From an uncultured Acidimicrobiia bacterium (GTDB taxonomy: Bacteria; Acidobacteriota; Terriglobia; Versatilivoradales; Versatilivoraceae), in contig CAWBAT010000003.1 in assembly GCA_963786955.1 (NCBI GenBank), positions 192,001 through 256,000 of the forward strand: a stretch of DNA of 64,000 bases, written 5' to 3'. Shown in pieces: positions 35,845-64,000 of the stretch. Both the position numbers and the translations under genes were made by a program. Position 1 is the first letter of the stretch. Every line of letters starts with the position of its first letter. Below the pieces are notes generated by a model that was not told the DNA's origin, ran no database searches, and saw nothing but the letters and a program-made list of their open reading frames with translations.

Positions 35845-35999
35845 TAGCGGGACTTCCTGAAAAAATGGGATACTACAATGGTGGAATTCCAAGGCCAGCG
35901 CTTCTTGTTAACCGGCCTCAAGAAAGCCACACCCCATTTCCTTGTGGACTTCCATGGCGGCGCCAATGATGGAATAGGTCTGGGCGTCCTTTTCCATAC
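35845..35999 (-). repeat. 155-bp direct duplicate of 36557-36711 (5' part of the GxxExxY gene)
   Basis: TAGCGGGACTTCC...CTTTTCCATAC appears identical at both loci. Confidence 0.92.
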
Positions 36000-36009
36000 G
36001 TATTCTCAA

Positions 36010-36300
36010 ACCTTCCCCCGCAGATGACGCAGATTTCACAGATAATTTCGGGGCGAACAGGGGTGGAATCTGTCGCCTGATGGTTTTAGGTATGGTCTTG
36101 ACAAAACCTCCAACCTGATGGAATGAGTGTGAGAATCTTTATCGTTACCTATTGCCGATGCTTCTTCCCGCAGATGGCGCAGATTTCACAGCTAATTTCT
36201 CGGCGAACATCGGCGAAATCTGTGGGCTATTAATCTTCTTAATGGTTCTATGATAGGAAGTTTCTTAATACGTTTCGTGAATCAGCCCTGAATTTCTTTG
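36010..36300 (+). repeat. Two tandem CGCAGAT-family palindromic units (~150-bp period)
   Basis: CCCGCAGATG(A/G)CGCAGATTTCACAG...GAAATCTGT at ~36016 and ~36167. Confidence 0.8.
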
Positions 36301-36307
36301 CAAGAAG

Positions 36308-36709
36308 TTATGCCTGAGAATTTGCTCTAGTCTTTTTGGGTATAGTCAGGATGAGACGTTCATATTGCAAGTTTGGGCTGCCAAAATTGAGCAGGAGAGC
36401 TCGAGAATATCCCGTGGCGTTCAAATAGTTGATGACCTGTGCCCTATGAGAATCGATGAGTGTTTCAACGGCCTTGAGCTCCACCAGGACTGAATCAAAA
36501 CAGACAAAGTCTGCCTTGTATAAACATCCCAATAATTGGTTTTTGTAGAGTATCTTTAGCGGGACTTCCTGAAAAAATGGGATACTACAATGGTGGAATT
36601 CCAAGGCCAGCGCTTCTTGTTAACCGGCCTCAAGAAAGCCACACCCCATTTCCTTGTGGACTTCCATGGCGGCGCCAATGATGGAATAGGTCTGGGCGTC
36701 CTTTTCCAT
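36308..36709 (-). pseudogene. GxxExxY protein (PD-(D/E)XK-like) with in-frame TAA at the motif tyrosine
   Basis: [37 protein letters not shown]...YKADFV...VELKA...AQVINYL...LLLNFG; stop at 36620-36622. Confidence 0.88.
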
Positions 36710-36721
36710 ACATGTTCCCAA

Positions 36722-36962
36722 AGCTTCTCCCGCAGATGACGCAGATTTCACAGATGGCTTCTGGGTGGCAATCGGCGAAATCTGTGGGCTGATGGTTTTC
36801 TGAGCGGTTAGACGATAGAAAGTTTTTGAATGCGTTTCTTGAGTCAGTCGGATGTTCTATTGCGAACAGTCTTTTTCTTTACGTATTCCGAAAGCTTCTT
36901 CCCGCAGATGACGCAGATTTCACAGATGGCTTCTCGGTGGCAATCGGCGAAATCTGTGCGTG
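36722..36962 (+). repeat. Two tandem CGCAGAT-family palindromic units upstream of GxxExxY
   Basis: CCCGCAGATGACGCAGATTTCACAGATGGCTTCT..GTGGCAATCGGCGAAATCTGTG at 36729 and 36901. Confidence 0.85.
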
Positions 36963-43590: not shown

Positions 43591-46449
43591 ATGCTGACGG
43601 GAAAATACCAGGAACTTTATCAAGCGCTCTCTTCTGCCATTCCCACGGAACGGCTCATTCATGACCCTCTCCGGACACTGGCTTATGGGACAGACGCCAG
43701 TTTCTATCGGCTCATCCCGAACCTGGTGGTGAAGGCTGAATCGGAGGAAGAACTCTTAGCCGTGATGAGGGCATGCCGCTTGCTGCAGATCCCGTTTACA
43801 TTCCGAGCGGCCGGGACCAGCCTGTCGGGGCAGTCCATCAGTGACTCGGTGCTGGTGATGCCAGGCAGCGGTTGGAAAGGAATCTGGATCAGCCCGGACG
43901 GCACCCAGATCAGGCTGCAGCCAGGAGTGATCGGTACTCATGCGAATATCCGTCTGCTCCCGTACGAACGCAAGATCGGTCCCGACCCCGCTTCGATCAA
44001 TTCCGCCATGATCGGAGGCATTGCGGCGAACAATTCCAGCGGGATGTGCTGTGGGACGGCACAGAATAGCTACAACACGGTGGCCTCGATGAGAATGATC
44101 TTCGTCGATGGATCGGTGCTGGATACCGGCAGCCTGGAAAGCAGAAGGCAGTTTGCCGAGACTCATCCCGGGATGATGGACCTTGTTCGGGACTTGTCGG
44201 AGCGGACCAGAAAGAATTCTGATCTGGCAGCGCGGATTCGCCGCAAATTCAAAATGAAGAACACCACCGGGTACAGCCTCAACGCCCTGGTCGACTTTGA
44301 GGATCCAATCGACATCATCACCCATCTCATGATTGGGTCAGAGGGGACACTTGGTTTTATCTCTGAGATTACCTACCACACGGTGCCGGATCACCCTTTT
44401 AAGGCAACGAGTCTCATGCTTTTCCCGGATATTAAGACGGCCTGTGAAGCAACCATCCTGCTGAAAAGCCGTCCGGTCGCCGCCGTTGAAATCATGGACC
44501 GCGCCAGTCTCCGTTCCGTGGAGGCGAAACCTGGAATGCCGGTTTATCTTAAGAACCTGGAAGCTGCTGTCGCTGCCCTGCTGGTGGAAACTCGAGCGGA
44601 GTCTGCTTCAATACTCGAGCAGCAAGTGGGAGAGATCCGACAATGTCTCTCAGAATTGCCTACGGTGCTCCCTCTCGCCTTTACGCAGGACAAAAAGGAG
44701 TACACCGAGCTTTGGAACATTCGCAAAGGATTATTTCCCTCGATTGGTGCGATTCGACAAGTAGGAACAACTGTCATCATTGAAGATGTCGCTTTCCCCG
44801 TCGAGCGGCTTGCTCAGGCAACCCTCGATCTGCAAGGCCTCTTCGAAAAACATGGTTATTCGGAGGCGATTATCTTCGGCCACGCCTTGGAGGGGAATCT
44901 TCATTTTGTGTTCACCCAGGACTTCAATCGCCAGGAGGAAGTGGAACGCTATCGGAGATTTCTGGATGACTTAACACGTCTCGTGGTTGAGGACTACGAT
45001 GGATCGCTCAAGGCGGAGCACGGGACCGGGCGAAACATGGCGCCCTTTGTCGAACTGGAGTGGGGCAGGGAAGCCTACGATCTTATGAAAGAGATTAAGC
45101 AGATTTTTGATCCAGACAATCTCTTGAATCCCGGCGTCATTCTCAATGGGGATGCTTCGATCCATGTCAAAAACCTGAAGCCGCTCCCCCAGGCGCATCC
45201 GATCATCGACAAATGCATCGAATGCGGTTTTTGCGAAATGAATTGCCCATCGCGCGACCTCAGTTTAACTCCCAGACAGCGGATTGTTGTGTGGCGCGAA
45301 GTGTCGCATCTGAGAGCGACCGGAGAGAACCCGGCCCGGCTGGCGGAGTTGAAACAAATCTTTTCGTATCAGGGAGAGCAGACCTGCGCGACCGACGGGC
45401 TGTGTGCCACGAGTTGTCCGGTCAATATTGACACGGGGAGATTGATCAAAGAGCTCAGAGCGCTCGATCATTCAGCACTGGCAGACACTGTAGCGACCAT
45501 GCTTGCCAAACACATGGGGGCGGTGACCTCCGGGATGCGGGGGGTTCTGAATCTGGCGGACTGGACGCATGCCTTGATTGGAACTCAAGCGATGTCTCGA
45601 TTGACTTCAGGCCTCAGGAAATTCTCCGGAAATCGAATACCCCAATGGAATCCCTACCTGCCGCGCGCCGCCGGACGCATCAGTTCGGTGTTGGGAAATC
45701 CAGAGAATCCGTTGAAAGTCGTCTATTTCCCCAGCTGCATCAGTCGAACTTTAGGATTGGCTCGCTCCAGTCCCGAATTGGAATCACAGAACGGGAGAAT
45801 TGATTCCCTGCTGCGCAAAGCCGGCTATGAGGTGATCTATCCTTCCAGGCTGTCTGGATTGTGTTGCGGGATGGCCTTTGCCAGCAAAGGGTTCACCCGA
45901 CAGGGTGATGCCAAAGCCGCTGAATTGGCCGCTGCCCTGCGAGAAGCCGCTGAGGGAGACCGTTATCCGATTCTCTTTGATACGAGCCCTTGCTTGTACC
46001 GGATCAAAGAAGTTTTGGCGACACCGACCCAACTCAATCTTTTCGGCCCGGTGGAATTTGTTCAGAAATTCCTTAAGTCGAGACTCCATTTTAGAAAAAT
46101 TCCGGGCACGGTGGCAGTTCACGCAACCTGCAGTTCACGAAAGATGAGCCAAGAGGAGAGAATTCAGGAAGTGGCTGAATCGTGTGCGGAAACGGTGATC
46201 CTTCCGGAAACGGTGGGCTGTTGCGGGTTTGCAGGGGATCGCGGCTTTAGCATACCGGAACTGACTGCCTCGGCGCTCCACCGGCTAAAAGAATCCTTGC
46301 CGGATGGCTGCCAGACCGGGTATTCGACCAGCAAGACTTGCGAAATTGGCCTTTCACTCCATAGCGGCATGAATTATCAATCGATTCTAGTTTTAGTGGA
46401 TCAGTGCACCGAGCCGTTGGACCCCAAGTTGGTAGGGCGCGCTCGCTGA
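43591..46449 (+). CDS. FAD- and Fe-S-binding D-lactate dehydrogenase (Dld-II type)
   Basis: AYGTDASFYRL, FRAAGTSLSGQ, KAEHGTGRNMAPF, CIECGFCEMNCP, CATDGLCATSCP, CCG domains. Confidence 0.9.
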   Translation: MLTGKYQELYQALSSAIPTERLIHDPLRTLAYGTDASFYRLIPNLVVKAESEEELLAVMRACRLLQIPFTFRAAGTSLSGQSISDSVLVMPGSGWKGIWISPDGTQIRLQPGVIGTHANIRLLPYERKIGPDPASINSAMIGGIAANNSSGMCCGTAQNSYNTVASMRMIFVDGSVLDTGSLESRRQFAETHPGMMDLVRDLSERTRKNSDLAARIRRKFKMKNTTGYSLNALVDFEDPIDIITHLMIGSEGTLGFISEITYHTVPDHPFKATSLMLFPDIKTACEATILLKSRPVAAVEIMDRASLRSVEAKPGMPVYLKNLEAAVAALLVETRAESASILEQQVGEIRQCLSELPTVLPLAFTQDKKEYTELWNIRKGLFPSIGAIRQVGTTVIIEDVAFPVERLAQATLDLQGLFEKHGYSEAIIFGHALEGNLHFVFTQDFNRQEEVERYRRFLDDLTRLVVEDYDGSLKAEHGTGRNMAPFVELEWGREAYDLMKEIKQIFDPDNLLNPGVILNGDASIHVKNLKPLPQAHPIIDKCIECGFCEMNCPSRDLSLTPRQRIVVWREVSHLRATGENPARLAELKQIFSYQGEQTCATDGLCATSCPVNIDTGRLIKELRALDHSALADTVATMLAKHMGAVTSGMRGVLNLADWTHALIGTQAMSRLTSGLRKFSGNRIPQWNPYLPRAAGRISSVLGNPENPLKVVYFPSCISRTLGLARSSPELESQNGRIDSLLRKAGYEVIYPSRLSGLCCGMAFASKGFTRQGDAKAAELAAALREAAEGDRYPILFDTSPCLYRIKEVLATPTQLNLFGPVEFVQKFLKSRLHFRKIPGTVAVHATCSSRKMSQEERIQEVAESCAETVILPETVGCCGFAGDRGFSIPELTASALHRLKESLPDGCQTGYSTSKTCEIGLSLHSGMNYQSILVLVDQCTEPLDPKLVGRAR

Positions 46450-46600
46450 GCGCGCCGCTGGAATTTAGAATTTGTGCAGGCCAGAGGCCCGCACCACAAC
46501 CTTGTGGTGCAGGCGTCCCGCCTGCCTCCAGTGCATTGCCGGATTCGTGGGCTTTATCCGTAGAACTTGTAGGTAGGGCGCCCTCGCCGACGTCCCATAG
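46432..46600. repeat. GTAG-type REP-like palindromes overlapping the dld stop
   Basis: GTAGGGCGCGCTCGCTGAGCGCGCC, GCAGGCGTCCCGCCTGC and GTAGGGCGCCCTCGCCGACGTCCC; the first recurs at 53275. Confidence 0.7.
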
Positions 46601-46611
46601 GAGCGAGAATC

Positions 46612-47215
46612 CTCTCGCCAAGGCGCGAAGGACGCCAAGAAAGGATTAAAACGGATAGGTTAGATTATTGTAGACGCATCTGTTTTAGTTTTGCTCAGAA
46701 TAAAGCCCGCGGGTGTTGCATACAATAAACTGTTGTGTACAGGCTCGGGGACGGAGAGGGAGAAAACCCATTGGATCTTTGCGCTCTTGGCGTCTTGGCG
46801 AGATGGCGTTACCTTTCATTTTGTTCAATCTGTGATATTCCAGCCGGAAGGAATCTGAAGCCAAATGGGCTGAAGATTGGGAATTTAGCAGCGCTTGCGC
46901 GGCGCGATGGTGCTCTGGGAGCGCGGGCATCTTGCCCGCAGACGTTACCGAAAATAGAGGTTTCTCTCGCCAAGGCGCATAAGGACGCCAAGATAAGGAT
47001 TAGAACGGATAGGTTAAATTGTTGTAGATGCATCTGTTTTAGTTTTGCTCAGAATGAAGCCTGCGGGTGTTGCATACAATAAACTGTGTACAGACTCGGG
47101 GACGGATAGGGAGAGAACCCATTGGATCTTTGCGCTCTTGGCGTCTTGGCGAGATGGCGTTACCTTTCATTTTGTTCAATCTGTGATATTTCCAGCCGGA
47201 AGGATTCTGGAGCCA
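46612..47215 (+). mobile_element. Two ~250-bp direct copies of a MITE/REPIN-like unit with CGCCAAG-family terminal inverted repeats
   Basis: Units 46612-46863 and 46964-47215; each begins CTCTCGCCAAGGCGC..AAGGACGCCAAGA and has the inverted TCTTTGCGCTCTTGGCGTCTTGGCGAGA ~190 bp downstream. Confidence 0.8.
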
Positions 47216-47236: not shown

Positions 47237-48493
47237 TCAATCCCATGATGGCCAGGTAAGCTGCCACGGCCGTTGCGCCGAATCCGCGAGCAATGCCGTC
47301 GCGATCAGCGGGGCGATTCCCCCGGACAGCACCGAGCTGAGCTGGTAGGTTAGCGAAGTACCCGTGTAACGCACCCGCGGCCCGAACAATTCAGACAAAA
47401 ACGCGGCTTGTGGACCGTACATCAAGTCATGTCCGACGTTGACGACGAGAATGATCGCGACGGCCATCAGCACCGGAGAACGTGAATTGAGGAGCCAGAA
47501 AAAGGGGTAGGCAAAAAACAGAATAAAGAGAGCACCCGCGAGATAGAGCGGACGGCGTCCCACACGATCCGAGAGAGCCGCGTAGCCGGGAACGGTGAAC
47601 AAACCAATGATGGCGGAAAGGATTACCCCGACCAGAGGAATACTTCGGGGAAGGCCGAGATGACTCTCCGAATAACTCAGGACAAAGACTGTGGCCAGGT
47701 AAAAGGAACCGTTCTCGGCGATCCTCATGCCCGTGCCCAGTAGCACGATTCGCGGATAGTTGCGAAACAGCTCGATGATGGGGAATGCAGACTCAGCTTG
47801 ATTTTCTTTCAACTTCTCAAAGACGGGTGATTCCAGGATTTTGAGGCGAACGAAAAGGCCAACCCCGATCAATACAAAGCTCAGCAGAAATGGAATTCTC
47901 CAGCCCCATGCGATGAATTGAGATTCGGAGAGGAAGGACGAGAGCAAGGCAAAAACGCCTGTTGATAGAAGCAATCCGGCTGAAACACCCATCTGGGGCC
48001 AGCTTCCATAAAAGCCGCGTTTCCCTTCGCTCGCATGTTCAACCGCCATCAAGACGGCCCCTCCCCATTCCCCGCCAACTCCAATGCCTTGGGCAAATCG
48101 CAGGACAACGAGCAGAATGGGCGCCAGAACTCCAACCGAGTGGTAGGTGGGAATAACCCCAATCAGAAAGGTGGCAATCCCCATGATGAGCAAGGAATAC
48201 ACGAGCATTGACTTGCGTCCGATTTTATCGCCGTAGTGGCCGAAGAGCACTCCGCCTACAGGGCGCGCCACGAAACCGACGGCAAAGGTCCCGAAGGCCG
48301 ATAACGTGCCAGCTAGAGGATTGACCATCGGAAAGAAAAGTTTATTGAAAACAAGCGCGGCGGCCGTCCCGTACAGGAAGAAGTCATACCATTCGATGCT
48401 GGTCCCGATGAAACTAGCCAAAATGACTTGGCGGATGGAGGACGTTTCTGGGAGCGCGGGCGTCCCGCCCGCAAATGTTTGCCATGGTTTCAT
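47237..48493 (-). CDS. MFS metabolite:H+ symporter (MHS/ShiA-like)
   Basis: GTSIEWYDFFLYG, GDKIGRK, GVGGEWGGA, WGWRIPFL, SDRVGRRP; the last TM segment is probably lost to a frameshift. Confidence 0.92.
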   Translation of the reverse strand: MKPWQTFAGGTPALPETSSIRQVILASFIGTSIEWYDFFLYGTAAALVFNKLFFPMVNPLAGTLSAFGTFAVGFVARPVGGVLFGHYGDKIGRKSMLVYSLLIMGIATFLIGVIPTYHSVGVLAPILLVVLRFAQGIGVGGEWGGAVLMAVEHASEGKRGFYGSWPQMGVSAGLLLSTGVFALLSSFLSESQFIAWGWRIPFLLSFVLIGVGLFVRLKILESPVFEKLKENQAESAFPIIELFRNYPRIVLLGTGMRIAENGSFYLATVFVLSYSESHLGLPRSIPLVGVILSAIIGLFTVPGYAALSDRVGRRPLYLAGALFILFFAYPFFWLLNSRSPVLMAVAIILVVNVGHDLMYGPQAAFLSELFGPRVRYTGTSLTYQLSSVLSGGIAPLIATALLADSAQRPWQLTWPSWD

Positions 48494-48567: not shown

Positions 48568-48722
48568 TTTTCTGGATGCCGGAAATGGCAAAAGAATATT
48601 TTGATCGTTTTATTCGAGACTCCGGGCATTTTGAGAATGCTAAGGACTACATCCATGAGAATCCAGTAAAGGCTGGTTTATTTGCAAAGGCTGAGGACTG
48701 GGAATTTGCCAGCGCTCGCCGC
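48568..48722 (+). pseudogene. 3' remnant of a RAYT/IS200-like tyrosine transposase
   Basis: FW...EYFDRFIRDSGHFENAKDYIHENPVKAGL..KAEDWEFASA; no HUH N-terminal part. Confidence 0.75.
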
Positions 48723-48745
48723 AGCGCGCCCGAAAAAGAGAATCT

Positions 48746-48921
48746 TCTCGCCAAGGCGCAGAGACCGCCAAGCAAGAACAGGATGAAGATCAGATTCATT
48801 GGGTCCTCTTGGAAAAAGGTTTAGTATACCTATAGAGAAATTAATTAATAGATGGAATTGCCCCGATCGTCAGCTGGTTGTCGATGAGTACCAGGGCCTT
48901 TGCGCTCTTGGCGGCTTGAGA
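48746..48921 (+). mobile_element. Degenerate CGCCAAG-family MITE-like unit
   Basis: TCTCGCCAAGGCGCAGAGACCGCCAAG ... CTTTGCGCTCTTGGCGGCTTGAGA inverted pair. Confidence 0.6.
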
Positions 48922-57807: not shown

Positions 57808-57849
57808 AAGGATGAGGACCAGGAATAACTGGTCCTCATCCTTTTTTTT
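57808..57849 (+). terminator. Rho-independent terminator
   Basis: AAGGATGAGGACCAG-gaataa-CTGGTCCTCATCCTT stem running into a T8 tract, 30 bp after the receptor stop. Confidence 0.88.
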
Positions 57850-58463
57850 GTCATCTTCTGCAGGGATTCTCTCGCCAAGGCGCTAAGGACGCCAAGACAA
57901 GTGAAAGAATCACTCGCCAAGGCGCGAGGGACGCAAAGAATGGGTTAGGGCGAAATAAGTCATATTGTTTTGTATTTAAACACATCAGTGAATCACGAGT
58001 TTGAAACGGATTTGTGTGAGACGGCTTATTTAGTAACGATTTAATGATTAGGACAGCACAATATAATTGCCAACGGCCTTACAGAAATCCCAAATATTAC
58101 TTTGCGCACTTGGCGTCTTGCGAGAGTAGAGAATGCTCTCGACAAGACGTAATGGAGCGCCAAGACAAGTGAAGGAATCTCTCGCCAAGACGCAGAGGAC
58201 GCCAAGAATAGATGAGAACCCGAAACGTAGCGTCTGATTGCAAACACCGAAGTTTCAGTAAACAAAACTCTTGGGTCTCGACAGTTGGAATGCGTGTGTG
58301 AGGCAATACAGCTTGGGAACTGCGAGAGGCGGAATTGGAGTTCGAGAGGCAACACTCTACCCAACTCGACGAACGCCTTATACGAAATCGATAAGGTCTT
58401 TGCGCACTTTGCGTCTTAGCGAGAGTAGAAAACGTTCTCGCCAAGGCGCAGAGGACGCCAAGA

Positions 58464-58547
58464 ATAGATGGGAATCAAATAGGTAAGATTGTTGTGGACT
58501 TCGCCGTTGCGTTACGCCGGGGGCTTGGACTGGGGTTGATAGGATAG
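58464..58547 (+). pseudogene. Degenerate 5' stub of a GxxExxY gene
   Basis: IDGNQIGKIVVDFAVALRRGLGLGLIG* aligns with MDENQIGRIVVDTAIAVHRGIGPGLLET of the gene at 59323 and directly follows a CGCCAAG motif. Confidence 0.7.
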
Positions 58548-58574
58548 GTCGAGAGACCCGGGGACTCTTGCAGT

Positions 58575-58720
58575 CCAAAGGTGTGCTTGGCAACCCGGCT
58601 TCTATAAACGAGGATTCGGTCGGCGAAACAGTTTAAATTCATGTCAGTGTATGTTGAAGAAAATCCCGTTCGGGCCGGCCTAGTGAACATACCTTCCGAT
58701 TGGAAATTGTCGTCTACCCA
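58575..58720 (+). pseudogene. 3' remnant of a RAYT-like transposase
   Basis: WQPGFY / RIRSAKQFKFMSVYVEENPVRAGLVNIPSDWK, split over two frames. Confidence 0.65.
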
Positions 58721-58933
58721 TCCAAGCTATCAGAGGATCGTGACCAAGCCCTGGCCTTGGATGTTTGAAAAGGAGTGAGCAGGAAAAAAATGGGAACCCT
58801 GACCGGGTGTCATTCGCCGCTGAGGACAGCGGCTCCCACAATGAGGAGTTTCCATTAAAATCTTTAATAGGGTGCCTGAGATTGTGAAACCTAGTGAAGG
58901 AATCTCTCGCCAAGGCGCTAAGGACGCAAAGAC

Positions 58934-59323
58934 CTATTCTCTTTCGGCGAGGCCGTTGACGATTCGGAAAATGCCATCCTTCATCTGTGCTTCCCCGAAG
59001 TTCAGCAAATAGCCCAGCTTCATGCCCGTGAGCTTTAAATAAGTAAGCAGTTGTTTCTTGTGGGCATTATTGATCGCCTCGATGGACTTCAACTCCAGAA
59101 TTACCTTCCCTTCGACGACGATGTCAGCTCTGAATCCCTCGTCAAACCTGAATCCACCGTACTCAATGGGAATGGGGATTTGTCGCTCAACCGTCAACCC
59201 TCGTTCTCGCAGTTCCTTCGCCAAAACAACCTCGTACACTGTCTCCAACAATCCTGGCCCAATTCCTCGGTGTACCGCAATGGCTGTGTCCACAACAATC
59301 CGACCTATCTGGTTCTCATCCAT
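58934..59323 (-). CDS. GxxExxY protein (PD-(D/E)XK-like nuclease fold), intact
   Basis: GPGLLETVYE, GFRADIVVEGKVILELKS, KQLLTYLKLT...GYLLNFG. Confidence 0.95.
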   Translation of the reverse strand: MDENQIGRIVVDTAIAVHRGIGPGLLETVYEVVLAKELRERGLTVERQIPIPIEYGGFRFDEGFRADIVVEGKVILELKSIEAINNAHKKQLLTYLKLTGMKLGYLLNFGEAQMKDGIFRIVNGLAERE

Positions 59324-59628
59324 ACTTGGCATCCATTACGTCTTATTGAGACCGGTCTCTACTCTCGCCAAGACGCCAAGTGCGCAAAGTGATCTATGGG
59401 ATTTCTGCAAGGCCGTTGGCAATTAATATTGTGCCGTCCTTGAATAATTAAATCGTGACCAAATAAACCGTCTCAGATAAATTCGGTTCAAGCTCGTGAT
59501 TCACTGATATGTTTGTATACACAACTATATCACCTATTTCGCCCTAACTCATTCTTTGCGTCCTTTGCGTCTTAGCGAGAAAAGGCTTCAATATTCTGTA
59601 TCGGGAAGGGACCCGACTGTATAAGAGC

Positions 59629-60828
59629 TCACTGGGGTGTTGTTCGGGCGCGTTGGTAGACTTTCTCTTTCTCGGCTGCCGAGAGCCTCTGGACTTCCTT
59701 CAGTTCCAGGGCACTCGCTTTCTTGTCACCCAGCTCGCGATAAACCTGTGCCAGGAAATAATGCGTCTGCGTGTCATTGGGTTCAGACGAGAGGGCGGTG
59801 AGAAGCTCCGCTTTGGCCTTCTCCAGGTCCTTCAGAGCCAGGTAACATTTTCCCAGGAGAAAATGAGGGCGTGACGCACCGGGCTGGGCGGCCGAGGCGA
59901 CGCGCAAGTAATCCATGGCCCCGGCACAATTGTCCCGGCCCACGGCGAACTCAGCGAGGTAGAGGTTGACCCGGAAGTCATTGGGGTCCTCGCGCAGGGC
60001 CTGCAAGAATTCCTTTTCCGCCTCATCAATCTGTTTCAAATTTCGATAGGCTACTCCCAGCGAGTAATGCAGACCAGGAGCGTCTGGACGTTTGCCCAGC
60101 GCAGCCCGATATTCTTTGAGCGAGGCTTCGTAGAGCTTGTTACTGGCGTAAACTTCGCCCATCAACGCATGTAACTGGAAAGAGTCGGGGTCAAGGTCGG
60201 TAAGAATTTGGATGACATCGAGAGCGGCGTTCATGTGGAGCCGTGCGAGTTGGTAGAGCGCGTCGGCATCCTTGGGATTTCTGGCCAAAGACTGATTGAA
60301 CTGGGCGATGGCATCATCCGAACGGCCAAGTGACACGAGGGCGATGGCGTTGTAGTAATGGCATCGCGGGTGGGGGCTGGGCGTTGAGAGTTCGGCTCGG
60401 AAACTATCCGTGGCTTTTTGAAACTGGTTGAGGCCGAGGAAGGAAGCGCCAAGAAAGAAATTGACTTCAGGATATTGAGCTGAGAAAGATAACGCGCGCT
60501 GAAACGCTTCAATCGATTCCTGAAACTTGAGTTCCGTCTGGTAGAGGATGCCGAGGCGCTTGTAGACTTCAGGATCGTTGGGGGCGAGAGCTAAAGCCTG
60601 TCGATAATTGCCCTCGGCGCTTCTATAGTCACTGGCCTTTTCATAAACACGCGCCTGATCGAGGAGCGATTTCACATCTGCGGGTCTCCCAAAAATTTGC
60701 TGCGGCGAGGCAACCAGCAAGAGCGCCCAAATGAGAAGATAGGCGCACGAAGTGGAGGACCGAATAAAAATGGGAACAAACATGGCCGTGAGCTTTGGAT
60801 GAGTGATCACTTGTTGATGTACCTCCAC
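59629..60828 (-). CDS. Secreted TPR protein
   Basis: Signal-like N-terminus (true start probably ~60783); many TPRs; PDSFQLHALMGE motif. Confidence 0.88.
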   Translation of the reverse strand: MEVHQQVITHPKLTAMFVPIFIRSSTSCAYLLIWALLLVASPQQIFGRPADVKSLLDQARVYEKASDYRSAEGNYRQALALAPNDPEVYKRLGILYQTELKFQESIEAFQRALSFSAQYPEVNFFLGASFLGLNQFQKATDSFRAELSTPSPHPRCHYYNAIALVSLGRSDDAIAQFNQSLARNPKDADALYQLARLHMNAALDVIQILTDLDPDSFQLHALMGEVYASNKLYEASLKEYRAALGKRPDAPGLHYSLGVAYRNLKQIDEAEKEFLQALREDPNDFRVNLYLAEFAVGRDNCAGAMDYLRVASAAQPGASRPHFLLGKCYLALKDLEKAKAELLTALSSEPNDTQTHYFLAQVYRELGDKKASALELKEVQRLSAAEKEKVYQRARTTPQ

Positions 60829-60895: not shown

Positions 60896-60940
60896 GCGGC
60901 TTTGCCGCTAGATGTACGGAAAGTCTCTGACTTTCCGCGC
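60896..60940 (+). repeat. REP flanking the RAYT (left)
   Basis: GCGGCTTTGCCGC-TAGATGTAC-GGAAAGTC-TCT-GACTTTCC-GCGC; inverted partner at 61586-61629. Confidence 0.8.
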
Positions 60941-60963
60941 CACCGCTCCTCGGTTTCTAGGGG

Positions 60964-61545
60964 CTATGCCCCAGCTGCAGATTTCCTCCACTTTATGCTA
61001 TCGACGCCGACATCCAATGGTTCGTTTTCGGTCGCAAGTCTCTGCCAAACCCTGGCACTTGACCAAGAATAATCCATGGCCTTTTCCACCAGTCCGGCAC
61101 GCACTGGGTTCTGGTGAATGTAATTTACCTTCTGCATCAACACCTTTTCGCTGAAGATGGAAAAGACGTTCGATTCATGACCCCAGAGCGAGTAAAGATG
61201 GTGCCGTTTCCCCTCGTCGTGCCGCAGTTTTCGCAGCGACTGTTCGTACTTTTGCCGCCTTAAGTACTCGATCACCTCGTGAGCAATCGTGCCTTTGATA
61301 TAGCGAAGCATCACAGAGGCTTGCCTTGGGTTGTCGGTTAACAAATGCAAGTGATCCGGCATGAGGACATAGGCCAGCAGCAGGAACCCACAAGATTGAC
61401 GGGCTTGATTGATCCCTTGACATGTGATGGCCTTAATAGGATCAGTCTGAAACACTGGGAGACGGTCTTTTGCAACGGCGGTGATGTAAAGACTGGGTGT
61501 ATCTCTAGACACTCGAAACCTGCTAGTCGTCATCTTTGGCCTCAC
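60964..61545 (-). CDS. REP-associated tyrosine transposase (RAYT, IS200-like HUH)
   Basis: YITAV...R.PVF; AYVLMPDHLHLL HUH motif; YIHQNPVRAGLV..A.DYSWSSA. Confidence 0.92.
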   Translation of the reverse strand: MRPKMTTSRFRVSRDTPSLYITAVAKDRLPVFQTDPIKAITCQGINQARQSCGFLLLAYVLMPDHLHLLTDNPRQASVMLRYIKGTIAHEVIEYLRRQKYEQSLRKLRHDEGKRHHLYSLWGHESNVFSIFSEKVLMQKVNYIHQNPVRAGLVEKAMDYSWSSARVWQRLATENEPLDVGVDSIKWRKSAAGA

Positions 61546-61585
61546 GGACTGTAGGGCGTAGCCCCAGAATCAAAGATGCTGAATT

Positions 61586-61629
61586 GGCGGAAAGTCAAAG
61601 ACTTCCCGTACATCAGGCGGCAGAGCCGC
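61586..61629 (-). repeat. REP flanking the RAYT (right, inverted)
   Basis: GGCGGAAAGTCAAAGACTTCCCGTACATCAGGCGGCAGAGCCGC is the near reverse complement of 60896-60938. Confidence 0.8.
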
Positions 61630-61789: not shown

Positions 61790-63127
61790 CTATTGAGTCC
61801 CCGAATCTTTCAGTTTTTGTACAGCCTCTTGGAGCCTCTCCCTCGCCTTTTCTTGGCCTTCACGAGTCAATCGTTCGAAGGCCTGAATGTGCTTTTGGCT
61901 TTCCTCCTTGTTTCCCAAGCGTGCATAAAGCTCGGCAAGCTGGAAGTGGACTTCCTTTAAATCGGGGTCTTGTTCCAGAGCCTTGTTGAAAACTTGAACG
62001 GCGCGTTCGGGATCTCCAGTGCCAACGTAACATTTTCCGAGCAGGACGTAGGCCTGGGTCAATTGGGGGTAGACAGAAATAGTCACTTCAAGGTGCGGGA
62101 TAGCCTGAAGAAATTCTTTGTTCGTGACAAAGATGTCGGCGAGGTAATAATTAGCTAACGGCTGGTTGGGATCCTCTATTAGCGCTTGTTTCAGCTCCTG
62201 CTGGGCGTTCTCAAGATTCTTGTTCTGCCAGTAAACCTGGCCCAGGGCTACGTGGATTCCCGGGAAATTGGGGTTCTTGCGGCTGACTTCCTTGAATTCT
62301 TTAATGGCTTCTTCAAATCGAAAGTTATCTGCCAAGACCTCAGCTCGGATCGCATGGGTGAATTCTGAATCGGGATAAAGCTTCGCAAGATTTTCGGCAG
62401 CCCGTTGAGCCGCAACCTTGTAATCTACAGCCAGTTGATACAGAGTGGCCACATTCTGAGGATCGTCCTTCAGCAAGATTTCCAATTGCTGGATAGCTTC
62501 CAGAAGCCGGCCTGACGAACTGAGTGCCAAAGCCAGGTAGTATCGGGCCTGCCTATCTTTGGGATTGCCCGTGAGTTCTTTTTGGGTCGCTTCTATGGTC
62601 TTATCGAACTTGTTTAATGCATAATACGAAATCCCCAGCAATGAATTCACCCCGGGGTAGAGAGGAGCCCGCCGGAGAATTCTCTGAAATATCTCAATCG
62701 ACTCATCATATTTTGCCTTGTTGCTGGCAAATGAGACCCAATCTTTTGAGAATCTCGGGATCATCCGGAGAAATGAGCAATGCTTTCTTGTAAACTCCCT
62801 TCGGCCGCACTCATAGTTTTTGCCCTTCTCCAATTCGAAGGCCTGGTTGAGCAGGCTTTCCATGCTGTCTGACTTGGTTTGGGCGTGAATCAGGTTGGCA
62901 GTCATCAGGATGATTGCCAAGGGGACGACAACGACCAAGGTGTTCCTCCATTCATTTGCCTTAAGCTGTGAAAAACTTCGAATACGCCGCGTGAGGTTGA
63001 GGCAATGAGAAAGCCTCAAGCCTACAATGACTGCAAGGAGTTGTGTAGGTGTTGTAAGCGGATTCCCCTGACCAGGCGGAGTATTTTCAAGCATTCCCTT
63101 CAGAGGGGGTGAGAAAAGTGAGGTCAT
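61790..63127 (-). CDS. Secreted TPR protein, paralog of 59629-60828 (start uncertain; compensating frameshifts ~62720-62810)
   Basis: TPRs; PDSEFTHAIRAE motif; hydrophobic signal near 62940. Confidence 0.82.
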   Translation of the reverse strand: MTSLFSPPLKGMLENTPPGQGNPLTTPTQLLAVIVGLRLSHCLNLTRRIRSFSQLKANEWRNTLVVVVPLAIILMTANLIHAQTKSDSMESLLNQAFELEKGKNYECGRREFTRKHCSFLRMIPRFSKDWVSFASNKAKYDESIEIFQRILRRAPLYPGVNSLLGISYYALNKFDKTIEATQKELTGNPKDRQARYYLALALSSSGRLLEAIQQLEILLKDDPQNVATLYQLAVDYKVAAQRAAENLAKLYPDSEFTHAIRAEVLADNFRFEEAIKEFKEVSRKNPNFPGIHVALGQVYWQNKNLENAQQELKQALIEDPNQPLANYYLADIFVTNKEFLQAIPHLEVTISVYPQLTQAYVLLGKCYVGTGDPERAVQVFNKALEQDPDLKEVHFQLAELYARLGNKEESQKHIQAFERLTREGQEKARERLQEAVQKLKDSGTQ

Positions 63128-63385
63128 CGGGTAATGGTTATGTCCAGAACTCAGTGTGATTGATTCCTATTCCTGCCGACCTAATTGGAGGCTGGAGGGG
63201 ATCAACGATACACTCGCGCTCACATTATCGCCCATTCCAAGACCAACCGTGGAAGACCGAAACGCCAAGGACGCGAAGCGCGCCAAGGAAAATATGGATG
63301 CAACTGAAGACTCACGGGTGGTAAGAGAATCGTACCGGGGTACTGTGCCTAGCATCAGCACGACGGTCTTCGTGGGTAATGGGGT

Positions 63386-64000
63386 TCAGTTGTTCCCTGC
63401 GGCATTTTGCTTCTCCATGGCCTTCTCGTTTGTTGCTTTCATCTTCTCTTTCTTCTTCTCTCGTTCTTCGTGATCGAGCTTTTGGAAAACTTCAAGGTGG
63501 TATTGCCGTTTGTCTGGCTGTTGGAGCCGCGTATAAACTTGTGCAAGCTGGTAATGCACCATTTTTTCATTGGGCCCCAATTCTTCGGCCTTTAACAAGA
63601 GCTTAAGTGCGTCCTCGAACCTTCCCTGTGCGATATAACACTTGCCCAGCTCTAAATACCCCAGCATGAACAAGGGGGCGGCTGCCACAACAGTTTCCAG
63701 GCGGGGAACGGCTTCCGGCATCCTCTGACCCTTAATCAGGATGTCGGCCAGGTAAAAATTGGCCATCGGGTGGTTGGGGTCTTCGCTTAAGGCGAGTAGC
63801 AGTTCCGGTTCGGCAGTTAGGGTAATCGACTTTATTGTAATAAAGCAATCCCAGCGCGAAATGGATTCCTGGAAAATTAGGGTCTTTTCCAAGAGTTCTT
63901 TGTATTTTTCGATGGCTTCAGGGTATTTTTCCCCGTCTGCAAAGCTTTCTGCCTTGAAAACCAGCATGTAAGTCGAGTTTGCATCGAGTGTCGCCCAACT
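63386..64000 (-). CDS. TPR protein, C-terminal part (5' end outside window)
   Basis: HPMANFYLADILI, YLELGKCY, VHYQLAQVY; third paralog of the array. Confidence 0.82.
   Translation of the reverse strand, partial: SWATLDANSTYMLVFKAESFADGEKYPEAIEKYKELLEKTLIFQESISRWDCFITIKSITLTAEPELLLALSEDPNHPMANFYLADILIKGQRMPEAVPRLETVVAAAPLFMLGYLELGKCYIAQGRFEDALKLLLKAEELGPNEKMVHYQLAQVYTRLQQPDKRQYHLEVFQKLDHEEREKKKEKMKATNEKAMEKQNAAGNN

Follow-up and report, generated by a model that had tools for sequence, protein, structure and literature searches.

The described systems which come closest to the element considered here are insertion sequences (ISs) along with miniature inverted-repeat transposable elements (MITEs), the repetitive extragenic palindromic sequences (REPs) and doublets of these (REPINs) that go with REP-associated tyrosine transposases (RAYTs), the IS200/IS605 group, and the intervening sequences of 23S rRNA. 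The element itself is found in 64,000 nucleotides (nt) of DNA from an uncultured Acidimicrobiia bacterium (assembly GCA_963786955.1, contig CAWBAT010000003.1, positions 192,001 to 256,000 of the forward strand), a stretch which is here called the window and in which positions are counted unless a different locus is named. It consists of a gene for a small protein of the GxxExxY family, bracketed by two short repeats, the 'arms', that are inverted with respect to each other. On balance, this unit of arm, GxxExxY gene, and inverted arm, approximately 440–480 nt in length, seems to be a compact selfish insertion element with MITE- and REPIN-like derivatives. It would, that is, be an apparently undescribed insertion element, bounded by terminal inverted repeats (TIRs) and equipped with a non-canonical, minimal nuclease.

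With ISs and MITEs the unit shares TIRs of approximately 26–28 nt around a single small open reading frame (ORF), an intergenic location, internally deleted copies which keep both ends, and, in some hosts, many copies per genome. It differs from them in carrying a 129-aa PD-(D/E)XK nuclease rather than a DDE, serine, tyrosine, or HUH transposase, in having arms that are heptad repeats, and in that no target-site duplication was found. At about 450 nt it is also far smaller than an IS, for which 0.8–2 kb is given in the available part of PMC3733652.

RAYTs, REPs, and REPINs likewise present a nuclease-type gene framed by inverted short repeats, with gene-less hairpin doublets that in some genomes (here, Gemmatirosa) are dispersed. 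The enzyme in the present case, however, is of PD-(D/E)XK rather than HUH-Y1 type, the GxxExxY gene is multi-copy and part of the repeated unit, and a single arm is no palindrome and bears no GTAG or CGTC tag, only the arm pair being palindromic. An earlier reading of the window (the original prediction) had drawn the analogy with RAYTs and REPINs; the dispersed hairpin doublets of Gemmatirosa do resemble REPINs, but the gene is multi-copy, the arms are heptad repeats, and in 52 of 80 loci arms are confined to the gene (below). REPs of the GTAG and CGTC kinds as well as TIR-associated tyrosine transposases, but not heptad arms, are catalogued in the part of PMC3733652 that was available.

IS200/IS605 elements resemble the unit in their lack of a target-site duplication, their small size, and a plausible dependence on DNA secondary structure. 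Here, by contrast, there is neither a Y1 transposase nor TnpB, and the repeats are terminal and enclose the element, as opposed to being subterminal hairpins. The 23S rRNA intervening sequences contain a small ORF of a highly paralogous family, with inverted repeats forming a long stem in the transcript. That description fits the present unit as well, except that its ORF is of another family and that the elements lie between protein-coding genes, with no tRNA or rRNA found in the window. Rfam 15 gave no match in the window and, in seven of the loci described below, only sub-threshold matches to miRNA-like hairpins. No description of the arm–GxxExxY–arm architecture was found in full-text searches of the main texts of papers outside subscription journals; the original prediction had known of none either.

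The Intact Element and Its Arms

The intact element of the window is made up of the following:

58934..59323, minus strand: intact GxxExxY ORF, identified by profile matches, invariant catalytic residues, and an AF2 model
58903..58932, plus strand: 3' arm of the intact element, with three well-preserved CRCNRAG heptads and no mismatch to the arm core
59324..59351, plus strand: 5' arm, degenerate and abutting the ATG, in inverted orientation with respect to 58903..58932

The arm motif is 28–30 nt long, with TCTC in front of three direct CRCNRAG heptads which are spaced at 8–9 nt. Both arms of the intact element lie where they had been predicted to lie. The 3' arm ends one base from the stop codon, and the inverted copy, which had been placed at 59325–59351, abuts the ATG at 59324–59351. 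The latter shows 68% identity to the reference inverted copy and a pairing score with its own partner of only 13. As its 5' arm has decayed, the intact window copy may no longer be able to move.

The ORF is that of a GxxExxY/PDDEXK_3 nuclease, 129 aa plus stop, which matches TIGR04256 (138.5 bits, cutoff 35) and PF13366 (138.1 bits, cutoff 22) over its full length. These two, GxxExxY and PDDEXK_3, are its only matches in Pfam and NCBIfam, with no transposase of known catalytic class among them. The ORF list gives 58934..59332 on the minus strand, that is, an alternative upstream ATG at 59332; the start nonetheless is likely the ATG at 59323, as homologues begin with MDENQ and are mostly 127–129 aa in length.

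Recurrence of the Unit across Phyla

Homologous loci were collected by scanning one genome per species with a 25-homologue alignment, by which at least 583 of 601 candidate stretches were confirmed. From these the best 80 were kept, with 58–76% identity to the window protein. They represent Verrucomicrobiota, Planctomycetota, Pseudomonadota, Thermodesulfobacteriota, Myxococcota, Lentisphaerota, Chloroflexota, Acidobacteriota, Bacteroidota, Nitrospirota, and several candidate phyla. In the 70-nt flanks of most of these best 80 loci, from at least 15 phyla, the same plan recurs, i.e., heptad arm, ATG, gene, stop, and inverted arm. Inverted motif pairs around the GxxExxY genes of many genomes, as the original prediction would have them, are thereby seen. 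With 100-nt flanks, 78 loci were testable, against which 385 random pairs of equal spacing served as controls. Inverted flanks scored 30 or higher in 43 of the testable loci versus in none of the controls, and exceeded the 99th percentile of controls in 55.

A strict arm, as defined by the three-heptad pattern, was found 335 times in the 634,310 nt of locus sequence searched, versus twice in shuffles, and tandem heptads occur no more than 110 nt from the gene in 75 of the 80 loci. In the common arrangement 0–10 nt separate the end of the arm from the ATG, and the last heptads of the arm, which are rich in purines, resemble a Shine–Dalgarno sequence. Across the 80 loci, arms are found at a density of 9.56 per kb in the 60 nt next to the gene but of 0.06 per kb at a distance of 3–5 kb, an approximately 160-fold drop, and in 52 loci no arm is present beyond 500 nt. 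The spacing of forward–inverted arm pairs is bimodal: 76 pairs have loops of 7–144 nt and 29 have loops of 381–475 nt, with all of the latter enclosing a GxxExxY gene. Distant homologues (42–54% identity), as inspected in Sphingomonas, Gemmatirosa, Bernardetia, and Bacteroides, carry arms at both ends of the gene in four of four cases.

Two loci assigned to different phyla, L038 and L073 (and also L056), have sequence in common outside of the arms, to the left as well as to the right. The element of this subfamily may therefore extend past its arms, or else the unit may be carried by a larger repeat.

Covariation and Co-Phylogeny of Arms and Protein

The heptad varies by locus (CGCAAAG, CGCCAAG, CGCAGAG, CACGGAG, CACAAAG, or CGCAACG), with the two arms of one locus matching. 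Among 25 aligned elements the two arms pair in 86.7% of cells, and double changes are seen in 13 of 26 pairs. Double-change cells number 85, versus 40.1 ± 5.8 in shuffles, none of 500 of which reached as high, and sliding the partner by 1–3 columns causes pairing to fall to 35–54%. The best partner of the 5' arm is the 3' arm of its own locus in 17 of 44 loci, and the latter is among the top three in 26. Mismatches, as read on the sense strand, show no excess of G:U (28 G:U versus 35 A:C), and for lack of that bias the constraint on the arms looks not to be specific to sense RNA.

The type of arm follows the protein tree more closely than it follows host phylum, a co-phylogeny for which the original prediction had proposed to test. 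Arm type changes 23 times on that tree versus a shuffled mean of 42 (none of 300 shuffles as low), and phylum 36 times versus 45; the tree itself is a quick LG+G4 one of 81 rows and few columns, with many unresolved forks. Of 19 CAC-type loci, 18 fall within one protein clade that spans nine named phyla, while in one metagenome-assembled genome from Terriglobia there are two subfamilies (L026 and L034), which differ in arm type. From this co-phylogeny along with the latter genome it follows that gene and arms travel together, including between phyla.

The GxxExxY Protein

Six residues (E27, D67, E77, K79, Q91, and Y95) are invariant in 25 homologues. The window protein has E27, D67, E77, and K79, which we take to be the PD-(D/E)XK set (E...D...ExK), with a QxxxY motif in addition. 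An AlphaFold (AF2) model of the window protein has a pLDDT of 75 and pTM of 0.73. Its nearest Foldseek matches are Cas4 SSO0001 and archaeal Hjc (4ic1, E 1.3e-3; 2eo0, 4tkd, and 2wiw, E 3–4e-3). With Cas4 and Hjc, its best structural matches, the protein has in common a minimal PD-(D/E)XK fold. It differs, however, in having no CRISPR context here, in a TM of only about 0.4, and in lacking a significant sequence match to solved structures (best E in the PDB, 0.27). Among the known anti-phage defense systems of PADLOC 2.0 the sole match was to Cas4, over 40 residues (59–98) and not significant (E 0.0043), and matches in PHROGs were likewise faintly Cas4-like.

At 50% identity the family comprises 19,329 representatives at E ≤ 1e-3 and 6,241 at E ≤ 1e-10. 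Some representatives of approximately 270–295 aa contain two GxxExxY stretches (P0121, P0122, P0125), which could be tandem units that are read through or instead true fusions. The 2012 survey of the superfamily, in its available part, lists the function as unknown and describes mixed clades and multiple transfers (PMC3424549). In the available part of PMC8934634, GxxExxY is named only as a domain label beside reverse transcriptase.

Insertion Sites and Distribution

In Sphingomonas parapaucimobilis (NZ_CP155749.1; L081, 338–801) an arm–gene–arm unit of approximately 440 nt separates fabD from fabG within the fatty-acid synthesis operon and is co-oriented with it. The unit starts 7 nt past the fabD stop and ends 22 nt short of the fabG start, with the ribosome-binding site of fabG intact just outside of the 3' arm. 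The two genes adjoin each other, with no arms, in S. paeninsulae and Rhizobium indigoferae. The matched span is 691–711 nt in S. paeninsulae, Rhizobium, Methylobacterium, and Shinella versus 1142 nt when filled. As the empty fabD–fabG sites carry no arms, the arms arrive with the gene. Empty sites in relatives, which the original prediction had envisaged, are represented by this one inter-species case, as a second filled/empty comparison, in Prevotella, gave nothing informative.

Neighbors of the insertions differ between genomes (fabD/fabG, ade/guanylyltransferase, radA/FAD protein), with flanks that are unrelated. The upstream neighbor is co-oriented with the gene in 50 of 56 loci, the downstream neighbor in 43 of 66. 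On the sense strand of the gene, the 8 nt that adjoin each arm on its outer side are rich in A, at 44% on each side (36 loci). This asymmetry cannot arise from the palindrome as such. Among 5,426 Escherichia coli genomes neither the GxxExxY gene nor the arms were seen; that is, in E. coli the motif is not as abundant without the gene, but instead both are missing.

Derivatives Lacking an Intact Gene

A 26-nt core of the arm occurs six times in the window at no more than 3 mismatches, versus none expected, and 12 times at no more than 5, versus 0–1 in 20 shuffles even at no more than 8. Between 57864 and 59580 there are 11 arm copies, seven forward and four inverted, which agrees with the approximately eleven that had been predicted. 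This cluster is bracketed by an inverted duplication, 57913–58156 versus 59332–59579, with 85–93% identity. Its blocks are 57913–58049/59443–59579 (137 nt, 85%), 58064–58120/59369–59425 (93%), and 58120–58156/59332–59368 (86%). The enclosing inverted repeats of the original prediction are therefore real, though with a length of about 245 nt rather than 255. Beyond the intact element, the copies in the window are these:

57864..57898, plus strand: leftmost arm copy of the cluster, standing alone just past the terminator hairpin of the upstream gene; the reference copy
57906..58126, plus strand: unit U1, with an arm at each end (the second inverted) and, between these, 5' and 3' remnants of the ORF to either side of an internal deletion; left half of the ~245-nt duplication
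58131..58165, plus strand: degenerate arm copy, twin of 59324–59351 in the inverted duplication; 60% identity to the reference, 86% to the twin
58174..58425, plus strand: unit U2, a copy that retains both arms, decayed and with an internal deletion, from repeat alignment; 58311–58352 matches residues 38–51
58430..58640, plus strand: unit U3, an arm plus 5' GxxExxY remnant (58458–58511, residues 2–19), with no matching 3' arm
59357..59580, minus strand: unit U1', the inverted copy of U1, with remnants of residues 4–37 and 117–130, from repeat alignment and tblastn
46612..46805, plus strand: deletion-derivative unit with both arms, from alignment
46964..47156, plus strand: near-duplicate of the 46612 unit, from alignment
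48746..48920, plus strand: decayed unit directly after a RAYT C-terminal fragment, from alignment and tblastn
63263..63400, plus strand: arm followed by a strongly decayed ORF start (tblastn weak, E 5.5), a unit beyond those of the original prediction

Units at 46612, 46964, 48746, 57913, 58178, and 59362 had been described as gene-less. They do exist, but tblastn and alignment find them not to be gene-free, as remnants of the ORF are kept. Nine aligned units have a common plan, in which the 5' and 3' arms enclose the first 100–190 nt and the last 20–45 nt of the ORF, the part between being deleted. Using the intact protein as a tblastn query, remnants immediately inward of the arms are found for residues 4–37 (59552–59451) and 117–130 (59444–59403) and, in forward units, for residues 2–19 (58458–58511, 67%) and 38–51 (58311–58352). 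The gene-less window units are internal-deletion derivatives which retain both ends of the ORF, a plan which matches the relation of MITEs to their parent elements. The cluster is a graveyard of insertions and local duplications, in which no fewer than seven degraded copies accompany a single intact gene with a decayed 5' arm.

Elsewhere, tandem short arm–loop–arm units lie beside a gene-bearing unit, or else around a gene that is found between units (L003, L031, L029). A run of N, that is masked or unresolved sequence, is present within the hairpin array of L031 (4840–4939), in keeping with assemblies being broken by arrays of this kind. In Gemmatirosa kalamazoonensis an 801-nt query consisting of the element plus hairpins matches at least 49 places on two megaplasmids totaling 2.1 Mb (BLAST; L087, L088). 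Within the 81 kb examined there, perfect hairpins of approximately 90 nt and of two arm types lie far from the sole GxxExxY copy, which is frameshifted and split over two frames. These hairpins fold strongly as single strands (z = -4.5 to -11), and their dispersal resembles that of REPINs.

The unit is gained, inherited, and transferred as a whole, and it decays to MITE-like copies and to hairpins, which are either arrayed or dispersed. That GxxExxY is the gene of an element which spreads non-autonomous copies, as originally proposed, is consistent with the recurring unit, the covariation of its arms, their tracking of protein clade, and the gene-less derivatives. The comparison with RAYTs and REPINs is a loose one.

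Possible Mechanism and Alternative Explanations

How such an element might move can be outlined tentatively. GxxExxY possibly is the only protein needed, in which case an Hjc/Cas4-like nuclease would resolve a hairpin or four-way structure extruded from its own arms and excise the unit, with host repair or ligation completing insertion. The nuclease, most likely dimeric by analogy with Hjc and Cas4, would recognize its own arms, whose three heptads look like an array of binding sites, and might see them either as duplex repeats or as an extrudable hairpin or four-way structure. A cut at the outer edge of the arm would permit movement without target-site duplication, and the element would enter A-rich DNA between genes, right behind a gene of the same orientation. 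In a read-through transcript the arms could pair, with the resulting stem, of approximately 26–28 bp, burying both the Shine–Dalgarno-like heptads and the start codon such that levels of the nuclease would be kept low.

A number of observations weigh against viewing the unit as a mobile element driven in this manner. To our knowledge, no PD-(D/E)XK nuclease on its own has a known strand-transfer activity. The structural model is moderate (pLDDT 75), with Foldseek E values of 1.3e-3 to 6e-3 and TM of about 0.4. Inverted flanks do not exceed the 99th percentile of controls in 23 of 78 loci, and 13 of 80 lack a strict arm on either side (110 nt). In about ten loci the arrangement is reversed, such that an inverted arm precedes the ATG by 10–30 nt and a forward arm follows the stop, and 24 loci score as direct repeats as well, the latter because several units lie in a row. 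Of 39 forward–inverted pairs spaced at 250 nt or more, four enclose other ORFs. The ORFs of those four, and those found between other neighboring arms, are housekeeping genes in some cases and small accessory genes in others, as is expected given that the hairpins sit in intergenic DNA. The 80 loci, moreover, were selected via the GxxExxY gene and as a gene-centered set are no fair test of whether the cargo is exclusive. Co-phylogeny, too, is no proof of recognition, as physical linkage alone could produce the pattern.

The evidence for insertion has its own weaknesses. The single filled/empty pair is between species (72.7% identity), so its junctions are not readable to the base. Target-site duplications were absent from 36 loci, where the mean best direct repeat was 1.92 nt versus 1.68 ± 0.23 when permuted (29 of 200 permutations as high). 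As to a route between phyla, only 8 of 72,556 PLSDB records carry the element, mostly on replicons of 0.4–1.6 Mb, and no GxxExxY copy was seen in 50,697 phage records.

An alternative, which we consider unlikely though compatible with mobility, is that the arms are mainly an RNA device. That is, a long stem would hide the ribosome-binding site and start codon, and perhaps supply an RNase III site, so as to silence or process a potentially harmful nuclease gene; the inverted repeats then would not be transposon ends, and the gene would spread by ordinary recombination and transfer. The positioning of arms at 0–10 nt before the ATG, with Shine–Dalgarno-like last heptads, is in agreement with such a device, as are the co-orientation of upstream genes in 50 of 56 loci and the RNA fold of one element (L005), in which a 28-bp terminal stem closes the whole ORF (z = -5.7). 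The same may be said of a promoter scan that found nothing promoter-like for the window gene (the region held one site, located elsewhere, versus 2.0 expected). G:U mismatches, however, are not in excess over A:C, and gene-less hairpins persist in arrays and, in Gemmatirosa, at positions far from any gene. The approximately ten loci with reversed arms at 10–30 nt from the ATG also fit the RNA device poorly, and the empty Sphingomonas site has no arms, so arms come with the gene.

It is improbable that GxxExxY is instead a homing-type nuclease, one which would cut gene-less hairpins, with repair from a gene-bearing copy via arm homology then placing the gene into the loop. Pair spacing is indeed bimodal, arrays of empty hairpins adjoin a filled one in L003, and the PD-(D/E)XK homing endonuclease I-Bth0305I is among the weak structural matches (E 0.064). 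The window units, on the other hand, are decayed copies rather than naive targets, since they keep ORF remnants, the empty fabD–fabG sites have no hairpin, and insertion sites vary among genomes, with no single conserved target that is interrupted.

More doubtful yet is that the arms are REP-like sequences which a RAYT, i.e., an HUH tyrosine transposase, mobilizes in trans, with GxxExxY being a passenger or hitch-hiker. An intact RAYT, missing from the original prediction, does lie 1.4 kb from the cluster (60964–61545, minus strand; NF047646, 89.1 bits, cutoff 80), and two RAYT C-terminal fragments of approximately 35 aa each, mutually unrelated, are inside or against units (48645–48746 and 58650–58757). 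Yet this RAYT carries an inverted repeat of its own, 43 nt at 60896–60938 and 61587–61629 (88%, including a small GC hairpin), which is unrelated to the heptad arms and is found at only those two places in the window. No RAYT was detected among the ORFs of the 80 loci at E ≤ 10, which is modest evidence given that the phmmer query was the window RAYT as a single sequence, of limited sensitivity. Absence within ±5 kb, furthermore, says little, because RAYTs act genome-wide and in trans. The arms, for their part, cluster tightly at GxxExxY genes and co-vary with GxxExxY clade. The arm, too, is a heptad repeat as opposed to a palindrome with the GTAG or CGTC tag that is described in the available part of PMC3733652. 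The motif, that is, was not found to track RAYT, as the window RAYT bears different repeats and none was detected in the 80 loci.

That the repeats are a local accident, i.e., duplications and inversions of this one genome that have no general meaning, is scarcely credible, since the same architecture is seen in most of the 80 loci (at least 15 phyla) as well as in four of four inspected plasmid or chromid loci, even though the cluster does hold its inverted duplication of ~245 nt and the near-duplicate units 46612 and 46964 are about 350 nt apart.

Neighboring Features of the Window

An outer-membrane beta-barrel gene upstream of the cluster ends in a strong, intrinsic-terminator-like hairpin at 57808–57843 (15 pairs, then a T run), and the repeat cluster begins 20 nt past this hairpin. 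On the other side, a tetratricopeptide-repeat (TPR) gene lies at 59629–60828 on the minus strand and, with two stretches that by eye are possibly TPR-like (~61800–62400 and ~63400–64000), surrounds the cluster and RAYT. The RAYT region (60896–61629) may be of the 'TIR-associated tyrosine transposase' kind that is reported for Acidobacteria in the available part of PMC3733652. Of the RAYT fragments, that at 48645–48746 ends exactly at the start of a heptad arm, and that at 58650–58757 lies within the cluster, after a GxxExxY 5' remnant. By the 46.6-kb units there are GC-rich palindromes of other types (46420–46600, 46900–46945, and 48445–48480), some starting with GTAGG, which by eye resemble ordinary REP-type repeats.

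A second, distant GxxExxY copy is found at 36365–36682 on the minus strand, within a repeat-bearing region at 35845–36958, with 30% identity and an in-frame stop; its 5' part is duplicated at 35845–35970. Accompanying it are four direct copies of a different repeat, of 89 nt, each with three ATCTGYG units and with no inverted pair, and a direct repeat of 243 nt (92%) spans 35845–36087 and 36557–36799. The 89-nt repeats, at ~36 kb, are not classed with the heptad arms because their folding is weak (z = -0.2 to -3.4).

Significance

If GxxExxY is the sole catalyst, then the gene-less hairpins would be its non-autonomous partners, that is, a PD-(D/E)XK counterpart of RAYT/REPIN and IS/MITE pairs. 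Should the nuclease prove to be sufficient, the element would deserve the name of a new class. One small protein together with a 26-nt arm is also a minimal system for studying structure-specific recognition of DNA.

If the unit is a mobile element, this would explain the patchy, cross-phylum distribution of the GxxExxY family as well as the presence of many homologues on short contigs. So too would it explain the heptad-coded peptides that gene callers add to some GxxExxY proteins along with a widespread class of intergenic hairpins. In addition, the few enzymes known to drive bacterial repeat families would be joined by a class of nuclease.

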